A DNA stretch of 64,000 bases, from contig BTVV01000013.1 of assembly GCA_045863855.1 (NCBI GenBank), positions 1-64,000 of the forward strand, in the 5' to 3' direction. Every line of letters begins with the position of its first letter. Position 1 is the first letter of the stretch. Both the position numbers and the translations under genes were made by a program. Under the pieces are notes generated by a model. The model was not told the DNA's origin and searched no databases. It saw only the letters and a list, made by a program, of their open reading frames with translations. Of this stretch, positions 39,627-42,722 are shown one piece after another. This DNA is from Planctomycetota bacterium (GTDB lineage: Bacteria; Planctomycetota; SZUA-567; H5-PLA8).

Positions 39627-39678
39627 GCCTGCGGCAGCGCCTTACGGCTTGAACTTTGCAACCTCCGAGGACATAACC

Positions 39679-40113
39679 ATGGGCGAGTCGGCCGTGATTC
39701 CGGTCCGCAAAGCGGAGAAGCCGCTGGTCATGCAACGCATTCCCACCTTGGTGGGCACCTCGGGTCATTTCACGGGCGAAGTCTTCCCGCTGGAATACGG
39801 CAAGACCATCGCCGTGGGCCGCAGCCGCACCGCCGATTTCTCGCTGCGCCGCACTCAGAAATACCGCGATCAGAAGCCCGAGGACCGCGAATCCGACGCC
39901 GACGCGAAGACCGTCAGCGCCAAGCACTTCGAGATTACGATGTACAACCTCGGCTCGATCGAGATCCGCAACCTGTCCAGCAACGGGACCTTCGTCGACG
40001 GCAAGCGCATCGATACGCTGATCGTGGACGACGTGGCCAAGAAGTCGCACGAGATTCGTTTCGGGAAGGACGAAGTCTTAAAGCTTGAGATGCGCGTCCA
40101 CGAGGATCTGTAG
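39679..40113 (+). CDS. FHA-domain protein
   Basis: AVGRS, TVSAKH, NLSSNGTFVDG, IRFG; ATG after GAGGA. Confidence 0.85.
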   Translation: MGESAVIPVRKAEKPLVMQRIPTLVGTSGHFTGEVFPLEYGKTIAVGRSRTADFSLRRTQKYRDQKPEDRESDADAKTVSAKHFEITMYNLGSIEIRNLSSNGTFVDGKRIDTLIVDDVAKKSHEIRFGKDEVLKLEMRVHEDL

Positions 40114-40169
40114 GCCGGCGCTCGATTGGGCCGCAGATGGCCGCGGCCTGGACCGCCGCAGAAAATGCG

Positions 40170-40991
40170 TTACCCCCTCCGTTTCCTTCCGCCCTTATGG
40201 CGCACCGGCTGCGGCAGCGCCTCCTGCTTCGGGCCGTTACGAAGCCCCAATCGATCCAACTCCCTTCGATTCAATTGGCATTTGGCGTAGCCGTAAACAT
40301 GGCTGCGTCCGTACAGGAGCTGTAGGCGCTCCCAATTCGAGTAAAAATCTATTGTGCCCACAAACACATCCGAAACTTTATGGCTCCATTCGTGCTGCGC
40401 AAGAATTCGCAGGTCAATGCGATACCAGACATGTGCCCTGCGGTGATACTGAACCAGCGGATCGCGCGGGTCGGTGCGGCGTTCTTGCAATCCTTCCGCC
40501 AGCTTGAGTCTTTTGCGGCGCCGCGCTTTGGTGTTGTAGAGGGGATTGCGACGGAGCACCCCGGTGCGCGGATCGACGTACAATTCGCCTCGAAAGTCTT
40601 TCAACGTCCGTAAGAGTCCCCATTCGAGAACCTGGATGCGGCCCTGCCGATCCACCTGCGTATGCACGGCCACGAAATCCCTGAGGTGCTGAAAGATGTG
40701 AAGTTGCACCGCGCTGTCCAGGCGCAGATGTTCGGCGATTTCGGCATGGACTTTATTCCATGGCCGGCCCACGCGGCTGTGCAGAAAGCGCCTGAGCGGC
40801 ATCAAGTTCTCGTTCAGCGACTTGCGCCTTCGATATTCGGCCCACGGCCGCCGCATGCCTAACTGCCGGGGCAATTCGTCGGCTGCTGCTGCGGATTGCC
40901 TGCGTTGCGCGTGATCCTTAGCACGCGGAAACGAGCCGCCGGGGTTATAGCGCGGGCGCTCGACGATAATTTTGGCCATATCGGTACGCAT
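40170..40991 (-). CDS. Arg-rich conserved-looking hypothetical protein
   Basis: RBS CAAGGAG; MRTDMAKIIVERPR, LNENLMPLRRFLHSRVGRPWNKVHAEI, LYVDPRTGVLR; very basic. Confidence 0.8.
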   Translation of the reverse strand: MRTDMAKIIVERPRYNPGGSFPRAKDHAQRRQSAAAADELPRQLGMRRPWAEYRRRKSLNENLMPLRRFLHSRVGRPWNKVHAEIAEHLRLDSAVQLHIFQHLRDFVAVHTQVDRQGRIQVLEWGLLRTLKDFRGELYVDPRTGVLRRNPLYNTKARRRKRLKLAEGLQERRTDPRDPLVQYHRRAHVWYRIDLRILAQHEWSHKVSDVFVGTIDFYSNWERLQLLYGRSHVYGYAKCQLNRRELDRLGLRNGPKQEALPQPVRHKGGRKRRG

Positions 40992-41087
40992 ACGAACTCC
41001 TTGGATCGCACGACGCCAGCGCCGCGCCGCGTCACGTTTCGCGGCATCGCACAGGCTTGCTCTAAGCCTGGAGGTACAGAGTTAGCT

Positions 41088-41118
41088 GAAAAGAATGGCC
41101 GTCCCGCGGGGGACGGCC
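41088..41118 (-). terminator. Putative intrinsic terminator (attenuator) in the leader of 40170-40991
   Basis: Minus strand GGCCGTCCC-CCGC-GGGACGGCC followed by ATTCTTTTC. Confidence 0.6.
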
Positions 41119-41169
41119 TCGGCGAAAGGCTAGGCGGAGGTCAGACGGCTGGCGTCCCGGCGAGAGCAG

Positions 41170-41196
41170 CTACAGCTGAGGAATTCGCACCGTCAT
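41170..41196 (-). CDS. Putative leader peptide MTVRIPQL
   Basis: Minus strand CAAGGAGTTAGAAC-ATG ACG GTG CGA ATT CCT CAG CTG TAG, upstream of the terminator hairpin. Confidence 0.6.
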   Translation of the reverse strand: MTVRIPQL

Positions 41197-41310
41197 GTTC
41201 TAACTCCTTGCTAAAACATTCACGGCCTCGTCGCCGCAGACGGGGGACTAAATCACATCGACCGGCCCAGTGTCAAATCGGGCGGAAACTTTTTCGCCTA
41301 AGCCGCGCGC

Positions 41311-41712
41311 CTACTTTGCCGCATCCGTGCTGTTCGTCGCGATGGTGGTTCGCTTCAAGCGGATCTTGTGCGTCTTGCCTTCGCGCTCGACCGTGAACTC
41401 GCCGCCGAACTTATCGGCTTCGTACGGCCCCCCTTGCCACGCGACGGTCTTCGTGGCCGCATCGTACGTGTACTTGCCCTCGCCGCCGGGCTTTCCGCCC
41501 GGGAGCAGCACCTTGTAGACGCCGCCGGCTTCCAGCACGAGCGAACCCAGCACAAGCGGCGGGCGGCCGATCGCTCCGTACGATTGAATGACATACGTGC
41601 CCAACCGCGGCCCGGCGCTGGTATCGCCGGCAGCCTCTTCGGCGCTCAGGGTGCCCGCCAGACCCAGCACTACGACGCAAGCCGCAGTCAATCCACTCAT
41701 TACGTTCCGCAT
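41311..41712 (-). CDS. Small secreted beta-rich hypothetical protein
   Basis: Signal peptide, RBS GAGGAG before ATG 41712. Confidence 0.7.
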   Translation of the reverse strand: MRNVMSGLTAACVVVLGLAGTLSAEEAAGDTSAGPRLGTYVIQSYGAIGRPPLVLGSLVLEAGGVYKVLLPGGKPGGEGKYTYDAATKTVAWQGGPYEADKFGGEFTVEREGKTHKIRLKRTTIATNSTDAAK

Positions 41713-41843: not shown

Positions 41844-42722
41844 CTACACGCGCTGTTGCTTCACGAAGTCCCGCACGCGCTGGCCGCTGACATCCTTAAA
41901 CAGTTTCGAGAGATGAAACGGGCTGCAGAAGCCCAGCCGAGCGGCGACTTGTTTGAGCGACGCGCCGGGTTCCGCGAGCCGGCGGCGCGCTTCCTGCACG
42001 CGCAGCCAGCGCACGCGCGACATCACCGTCATCCCGGTCTTGGCCCGAAAACCGTGGGCCAGCGCCGAGACGGACATGCCCAGCGCCGCCGCGACTTCGT
42101 CCAGCGCCGGCGGGCTTCCCGAGGCGACCAGCTTGCCGGCGGCTTCGTCTACGCGCTTGAGCAGACTATCTTCGCTCCAGCCGCGGCCCGGAGCGGAGAT
42201 GCGCCACGGGTCGCCCGGCAAGCCCGCGCCGCCGCCGCGAGCGGCCCGCGCCACCTCCGCCAGGATCACTTGCAAGTGCGCCGCGGCCACCGGTTCCGCG
42301 CCGGGCTCGCCGCTCTGCCGCAACGACCACATCGCACGAACGTGCGGCAAGAGACGCTCTTCGGGATCGGACAGCAGCGTGAACGGCCGTTCGCTCAGCG
42401 GCGCCCAAGCTTTGCGCAAGTCGAAGTAGAACCAGACGTGCTCGATCTGCCGCGGCGGCCGCTCGCTCATGTGCCAGTACGAGACGCCCGGGCGGTACAC
42501 GTACCACGTATGCACCGGCCGCGGAAAGGCGCCGATCTCGATATCCCGGCTCTGCACCCGCAAATGGCCGCCCGGCAGCGCCACATACTCCATCAGCCAC
42601 GGCTGCCATGTCCAAGGGCCGTACCACGTGCCCGGCACGTGCCGATAGGACCGCACCTCGCAGACCACCGAATGCAGCGCCGCGTCCGGAAGCTCGTGCA
42701 AGATTATGTATCTCCTTTGCAT
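41844..42722 (-). CDS. AraC-family transcriptional regulator
   Basis: LDEVAAALGMSVSALAHGFR..TG; SLKQVAARLGFCSPFHLSKLFK. Confidence 0.9.
   Translation of the reverse strand: MQRRYIILHELPDAALHSVVCEVRSYRHVPGTWYGPWTWQPWLMEYVALPGGHLRVQSRDIEIGAFPRPVHTWYVYRPGVSYWHMSERPPRQIEHVWFYFDLRKAWAPLSERPFTLLSDPEERLLPHVRAMWSLRQSGEPGAEPVAAAHLQVILAEVARAARGGGAGLPGDPWRISAPGRGWSEDSLLKRVDEAAGKLVASGSPPALDEVAAALGMSVSALAHGFRAKTGMTVMSRVRWLRVQEARRRLAEPGASLKQVAARLGFCSPFHLSKLFKDVSGQRVRDFVKQQRV

Follow-up and report, generated by a model that had tools for sequence, protein, structure and literature searches.

We report that an eight-codon upstream open reading frame (uORF) and an intrinsic-type terminator precede a gene for a basic 273-residue protein in a 64,000-nucleotide stretch of planctomycete DNA, hereafter called the window. 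The leader is probably a ribosome-coupled transcription attenuator, and the protein that it gates an RNA- or ribosome-binding backup factor of a translation-stress and RNA-repair response. Because a uORF and a terminator precede a member of a family associated with RNA-repair genes and spare tRNAs, the cassette is likely to be on when ribosomes falter. The protein family is large, unnamed and structurally unplaced, and it is the new part of the finding.

The leader elements lie on the minus strand. A promoter-like site, TTGACA-N18-TTTAGT, resembles the consensus at 41276-41247, and it was not called by a sigma-70 scan. The 5' segment at 41225..41236 is predicted to pair at long range with the region 41134-41124 or to form its own hairpin. 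The leader ribosome-binding site (RBS), CAAGGAG (41210-41204), is predicted to lie in the loop of a weak hairpin (-9 kcal/mol) that encloses the start codon. The 5' strand of this hairpin is also a two-codon ORF, Met-Phe-stop (41216-41224, minus strand), which may be chance. The uORF (41196-41170) would encode MTVRIPQL and ends in TAG. The antiterminator strand (41144..41158) begins 12 nt past this stop and includes GGGACGCC (41158-41151); it is predicted to form a three-way junction of -16.2 kcal/mol by pairing its GGGACG with the six inner bases in the 5' arm of the terminator. The same strand can pair with uORF codons 2 to 6 in a predicted helix of -18.4 kcal/mol, and these two structures and a long helix from the 5' end are predicted to compete. 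The terminator-like element (41118-41088) is a 9-bp hairpin of about -19 to -20 kcal/mol followed by a U-rich tail. Downstream of it are CTAACTC (41085-41079), a 7-bp hairpin (41070-41052), the main-gene RBS CAAGGAGTT (41003-40995), and the gene for the 273-residue protein (40991-40170). The window therefore has the parts of an attenuator: a uORF with an RBS between a promoter-like site and a gene, a terminator belonging to the same unit, and a predicted, mutually exclusive antiterminator.

All of the elements described in an earlier, sequence-only reading lie where that reading had placed them; the promoter-like site, the uORF/antiterminator helix, and the long helix between the 5' end and the pre-terminator region are additional. 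The earlier reading had also paired CTAACTC with the leader RBS region. This pairing is probably chance, because by our estimate a 7-nt match is expected in a leader of this size.

The promoter-like site, the uORF, the terminator and the gene form one cassette (40124-41299). Genome G002, from the same genus and 92 to 94% identical on both flanks, lacks 40124-41299 as a block; about 55 bases separate the flanking genes there. Therefore, promoter, uORF, terminator and gene were gained or lost together. The possibility that the terminator is the end of the upstream gene was rejected, because the hairpin is inside the cassette missing from G002. Three flanking genes are syntenic in G002: one for an FHA-domain protein (39649-40113, plus strand), one for a small secreted protein without a family (41311-41712, minus strand), and one for an AraC regulator (41844-42722, minus strand). 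The family is patchy, with members in 3 of 20 genomes of the order and in 9 of 401 genomes in a sample of the phylum. The GC3 of the main gene is 0.68, against a median of 0.82, which places it in the lowest 2% of 3870 host genes.

We estimated how often such a layout arises by chance in the host genome, using a gene set of 5149 genes from a home-made gene caller. A uORF of 2 to 30 codons followed by a strong terminator was present in 3 of 2333 upstream regions, and the reverse complements of these regions also gave 3. Taken by itself, the arrangement is rare, yet its genome-wide frequency is that expected by chance. Therefore, the case depends on comparison with other loci. The motif AAGGAG-N5-9-ATG marks 297 of the 5149 called gene starts, against 103 occurrences elsewhere in 1.1 Mb of non-coding DNA. 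The 6-nt antiterminator core was present in 14 of 2000 shuffles. Folding of the stretch from the uORF to the terminator loop was matched by 228 of 300 shuffles, and the folding z-score of the whole leader is -2.4. A search of 20 related genomes with the leader DNA returned short chance matches only, and an Rfam search with the leader gave no match at E values up to 10. These chance levels bear on an alternative account, in which the uORF is accidental, the hairpin constitutively lowers expression of a horizontally acquired gene, and control lies at the promoter, for example through a repressor. The chance frequency of the layout, the weak modelled switch, the foreign codon use of the gene and the precedent of the TrcR repressor in Anabaena agree with this account. 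However, uORF leaders precede the same family in several unrelated lineages and precede related stress genes in the same host genome, and we regard it as the least likely of the alternatives weighed here.

We then modelled the folding of the window leader with a ribosome masking part of it. With the pairing span set to 70 to 90 nt and the ribosome on codons 3 to 7, the antiterminator probability was mostly about 0.9. The sequence-only reading had proposed that a ribosome at the uORF stop masks the antiterminator. In the window leader, this happens in the model only if at least 19 nt from the P site are covered and long-range pairing is excluded: at a span of 70 to 90 nt the antiterminator drops to 0 to 0.1 only with a footprint reaching +19, whereas a footprint of 13 to 16 nt mostly leaves it in place. 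With an unrestricted pairing span, the antiterminator seldom forms. Without a ribosome, its probability ranges from 0.01 to 0.95 across settings and is 0.5 to 0.95 in most local-folding settings. The switch in the model is a small one of at most about 4 kcal/mol, and it varies with start site, span and footprint. Such folding does not fix the direction of the switch. Masking at the stop and re-pairing with the vacated uORF are both possible routes to the off state in these models, and a net effect of "on when the ribosome lingers mid-leader" would be compatible with the folding.

The strength of the uORF/antiterminator helix suggests another arrangement, of the vmlR type. Here the uORF would be an anti-antiterminator, a parked ribosome (mainly at initiation, with lincosamide- or pleuromutilin-type drugs) would turn the gene on, and lack of translation would turn it off. 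In the model without a ribosome, the uORF/antiterminator pairing has a probability of about 0.8, and the layout is the same as that of vmlR SL-1 (PMC9226507). However, local folding often forms the antiterminator even when no ribosome is present, and with a ribosome on codons 1 and 2 the post-stop segment can capture the antiterminator strand instead. In the models, the sister leaders of the host, described below, also default to on and go off with a ribosome at the stop. We consider the vmlR-type arrangement unlikely.

The reading that we prefer, a general sensor of translation, draws on other leaders in the host genome (G000). The unpublished genome G017 was not used to support any statement made here. 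The TTGACA/TTTAGT promoter shape is also found upstream of two other uORF leaders in this genome. It precedes one more host gene, which we take to be primase-like. An array of 26 tRNAs (contig C1, 28652-23667, minus strand; L235, L238), which also holds HNH and GNAT genes, is preceded by a leader with a 54-codon uORF, whose stop lies inside the antiterminator strand, and then by a terminator of -24 kcal/mol. The array leaders of G000, G001, G002 and G004 keep a uORF length of 51 to 54 codons and the position of the stop, and the peptide is entirely different in G001 and G004. In models of the array leaders of G000, G001 and G004, a ribosome at the last codons lowers the energy needed to release the terminator arm from 14-19 kcal/mol to 4-6 kcal/mol. 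A zinc-ribbon leader (contig C14, 79078-78580, minus strand; L236, L258) has the same promoter type, a 41-codon uORF that ends in the antiterminator, and a terminator; a 65-residue basic zinc-ribbon ORF follows, and the arrangement is kept in G001 and G002. Therefore, the proposed masking of the antiterminator by a ribosome at the stop does hold in the models of the tRNA-array and zinc-ribbon leaders, and modelling has the sister leaders on by default and off with a ribosome at the stop. A third leader precedes an rtcB-type gene that is apparently interrupted (contig C247, 2937-1477, minus strand; L233); it combines a promoter of the same type with a 20-codon uORF and a C-rich tract. An Rfam search of the array and the two sister leaders found tRNAs in the array only and no match for the leaders. 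It is likely that attenuation controls the spare-tRNA array of this planctomycete lineage, a task that falls to a repressor in cyanobacteria.

Leaders with a uORF also precede homologs in several other lineages, as the sequence-only reading had suggested looking for. In a Steroidobacteraceae clade, a promoter-like site, a Shine-Dalgarno sequence (SD), a uORF and a terminator stand immediately upstream of the gene in 20 of 22 tree rows, and the terminator is some 20 to 55 nt from the gene. The uORFs have 9 to 15 codons at 23 of 24 loci and 31 codons at the remaining one, and their peptides are divergent. Masked-ribosome folding of class-A leaders showed the antiterminator pairing falling at the last codons in 10 of 16 leaders, again as the masking proposal has it, and not in the other 6; modelled effects in class-B leaders were small. 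The covariation of hairpins that the sequence-only reading had also proposed to look for did not appear: although pairing in the Steroidobacteraceae helices stands at 98%, all changes are one-sided and the signal does not exceed that of shuffles. An Ala, Ser or Thr penultimate codon, present in 15 of the 24 uORFs, was set aside, because the rows are kin and the window uORF lacks it. Such a codon is reminiscent of chloramphenicol stalling. At four loci (L034, L036, L046 and L211), the stop of a 9-codon uORF overlaps the start of a three-codon ORF (MTR), which ends where the longer uORFs of relatives end.

Outside the Steroidobacteraceae, an automatic attenuator detector applied to 38 loci found little that was convincing, and the leaders that follow were read by eye afterwards, which is a selection step. 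Xanthomonadales operons (L008, L035, L061) begin with uORFs of 38 to 43 codons, without a clear SD, followed by a terminator. A 38-codon uORF with a terminator heads the operon in Sphingomonadales, and a 9-codon uORF with a terminator heads it in Burkholderiales. The modelled barrier falls near the stop in L061, in L026 (38-codon uORF) and weakly in L079 (9-codon uORF), and not in L008. In the host's own family, the G005 homolog lies behind a promoter of the same type and a uORF of 19 codons, together with a tract whose C-richness ranks near the 99th percentile; no leader was seen at the G015 homolog. Most homologs are without such a leader. Many alphaproteobacterial copies begin directly after a promoter-like site. 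A few others carry a leader of another sort, which has a terminator but no SD-led uORF. At L024, L066, L075, L076, L182, L188 and L194, this leader, 130 bases upstream of the gene, has a conserved hairpin with a U-rich tail and is possibly another attenuator. In Terricaulis/Hyphomonadaceae copies (L001-L078), the gene begins a few bases past the promoter-like site with no SD, suggesting a leaderless mRNA.

The window protein has a pI of 11.3 and 46 Arg residues, and the pI is above 9 in all 110 aligned family members. A profile search found 3955 clusters at an E value of 1e-10 among 1.84 billion representatives at 50% identity. The family occurs in about 840 stretches in GTDB and at 48 viral loci, many of them on contigs longer than 100 kb, and Myxococcus phage Mx1 carries a member. 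The window protein had no match in Pfam or NCBIfam at E values up to 1 and no family match in PHROGs or among PDB sequences, and an ESM Atlas search returned unnamed clusters only. Our literature search found no paper on the family, which is without a searchable name, or on attenuation of tRNA arrays.

The structure model of the protein has a pLDDT of 83. A flexible, basic N-terminal arm (residues 1 to 60), modelled at low confidence, holds the best-conserved motif. Residues 61 to 152 are winged-helix-like and contain two conserved histidines; the match is weak, with a best Z of 5.0 (rmsd 2.9, 62 residues aligned). The C-terminal domain is a small beta/alpha domain with a pLDDT of 91. Foldseek searches of the PDB with the whole model and with the C-terminal domain gave nothing at an E value of 0.001, and the viral library gave just two uncharacterised phage proteins near that value. 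VIA on the C-terminal domain had a best Z of 3.6 and no clear structural match, and this shows neither a new nor a known fold. One might suppose that the leader senses translation but gates a DNA-binding regulator of the winged-helix type or a general nucleic-acid binder, because residues 61 to 152 align to winged-helix domains (Z 4 to 5, rmsd 2.4 to 4) and homologs occur in large phages. However, these matches are weak and include RNA-associated domains, and the nonstop-type gene ends, the tRNA arrays and the rtcB operons described below better suit a translation factor. We hold this alternative to be quite improbable.

The RNA-binding reading, which we favor, is in keeping with the gene neighborhoods. 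We counted neighbors at 79 GTDB loci (those with a mapped start), 80 metagenome loci and 43 viral loci, which are best matches, many of them short and many kin. A same-strand rtcB is present at 12, 9 and 3 of these loci, respectively, and clusters of at least four tRNAs at 7, 2 and 6. Other neighbors among the 79 GTDB loci are SPFH (4), HNH (2), TROVE (1) and Hen1-Pnkp (1). The neighborhood check proposed by the sequence-only reading was thus borne out for rtcB and TROVE, and it also brought up tRNA clusters, SPFH, HNH and Hen1-Pnkp. At least one repair neighbor is present at 16 of 79 GTDB, 12 of 80 metagenome and 9 of 43 viral loci, and 63 of the 79 GTDB loci have none of those searched for. 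In a FastTree protein tree of 87 rows, built once near-duplicates had been removed, the rtcB and tRNA links are spread over several branches. The grouping of the window protein with planctomycete homologs is weak (support 81); 4 of 10 of these homologs are in tRNA clusters. The host genome has a separate cluster of TROVE, rtcB and rtcA with two unannotated genes (contig C34, 4117-12116; L237). The gene divergent from this cluster is presumably RtcR-like. A third rtcB of the host is on contig C3. The neighbors of the family are the same gene set as the translation-stress regulon of Anabaena, which comprises a tRNA array, rtcB, HNH, slipin and GNAT genes (PMC8421152, PMC10272220).

A second regulatory mark is found at some gene ends. 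In Burkholderiales, the ORF runs through a terminator at 4 of 8 loci, right past the conserved core, and at L271 the stop codon uses the last U of the terminator tail. In an earlier set, a terminator preceded the stop codon at 1 of 105 loci with a full 3' end. The window gene has a normal stop, with no terminator or cut before the stop codon. Directly upstream of the gene at the four nonstop Burkholderiales loci is a small basic ORF, which follows rtcB at three of the four. Such an ORF, of about 58 to 68 residues (KPRN...GAG.H), immediately precedes the family gene at the Burkholderiales loci L079 (4784-5005), L272, L274 and L275, and the L079 copy had no Pfam or NCBIfam match. In a set of 150 proteins sharing the core motif, 34 end in tails of at least 9 residues, two more having been dropped as mis-parsed. 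Of the 16 tails that contain Phe, 10 can encode a stem of at least 9 bp before the Phe, against 7 of 150 control windows. BrfA is a precedent, since it is kept down by trans-translation via a terminator inside its ORF (PMC6881298).

Three independent signs argue for a translation-stress role of the family. Of the parts of our proposal, induction by translation trouble is the one that we consider most likely. The switch geometry, which rests on the folding models, has about an even chance of being right. In this geometry, transcription would start near 41240. In a healthy cell, the ribosome would reach the uORF stop and depart, the antiterminator strand would be covered or re-paired with the uORF, and the terminator would form. 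A ribosome held on codons 3 to 7 by a drug, by a missing or cut tRNA or by ribosome damage would leave the antiterminator strand free to block the terminator 5' arm. The protein may then bind damaged or stalled translation machinery by its basic arm and its winged-helix-like domain and assist rescue or RtcB-type repair. We infer this molecular action from context, and a direct role in ribosome or tRNA rescue or repair falls slightly short of an even chance.

More tentatively still, the family may be a widespread, unnamed class of proteins that rescue or repair ribosomes or tRNA in bacteria and large phages. Its C-terminal fold would be new, several independently evolved translation sensors (uORF attenuators, Rho-type leaders, and nonstop mRNA tagged through tmRNA) would keep it silent, and it would belong to a spare-tRNA/RtcB regulon under attenuator control. 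Ribosome-sensing leaders and nonstop mRNA have repeatedly led to new rescue or resistance factors, such as VmlR and BrfA. Here both marks meet on one large unannotated family that is also found in rtcB operons, spare-tRNA arrays and large phages. As such, it is a candidate for a component not yet described in bacterial RNA repair and ribosome recovery, and its cultured carriers include Pseudoxanthomonas, Nannocystis and Variovorax.

Several known systems share parts of this arrangement. The vmlR leader of Bacillus subtilis is alike in having a second, downstream RBS, and its uORF can form an anti-antiterminator helix, which for the window leader is predicted but is not dominant in all folding settings; the window leader shows no sign of drug-specific stalling or pause elements (PMC9226507). 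No ABC-F, Erm or HflXr gene lies downstream of it, as the main gene is without a Pfam or NCBIfam match. The rescue factors BrfA and ArfA share with the family a very basic protein and, in the Burkholderiales subclade, an ORF-internal terminator (PMC6881298). However, the window protein is about four times larger, folded in two domains, and has a normal stop; at 273 residues and with no family match, it is outside the ArfA/BrfA range of about 60 to 70 residues with family similarity. The duf1127 attenuator of Sinorhizobium meliloti, in which a uORF monitors ribosome availability and a C-rich sequence is present, resembles the G005 and C247 leaders, which are without a strong terminator; the window leader differs in its intrinsic-type hairpin and its target gene (PMC12218461). 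In Anabaena PCC 7120, the TrcR regulon and the L-type tRNA array have the same cast of spare tRNA array, rtcB, HNH, slipin and GNAT, but are controlled by a DNA repressor and not by attenuation (PMC8421152, PMC10272220). The gene upstream of slipin there, alr0739, might be a family member.

The sequence-only reading had likened the window leader to those of erm, msr and ABC-F genes. A translation-sensing leader before a translation-stress gene is supported, but PA5471.1 and whiB7 are more apt comparisons, because neither the sequence nor the length of the leader peptides is constrained. In Pseudomonas aeruginosa, the PA5471.1 leader that precedes the armZ (PA5471)-PA5470 operon likewise has a short leader peptide and a downstream terminator, and is read through upon ribosome impairment (PMC12057347). 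It is an unrelated leader and gates ArmZ, the mexXY anti-repressor, whereas the window leader gates an unnamed family and its switch is predicted. In mycobacterial whiB7, efficient translation of a uORF of variable sequence leads to termination, and general translation stress leads to read-through (PMC10274678). The window uORF differs in having 8 codons and an antiterminator 12 nt past its stop, and its output is no known transcription factor; the closest counterpart of whiB7 in the host is the tRNA-array leader with its uORF of 51 to 54 codons. The regulation of the window gene is best read as an attenuator that senses general translation trouble; its kind is known, and PA5471.1 and whiB7 are its nearest counterparts.
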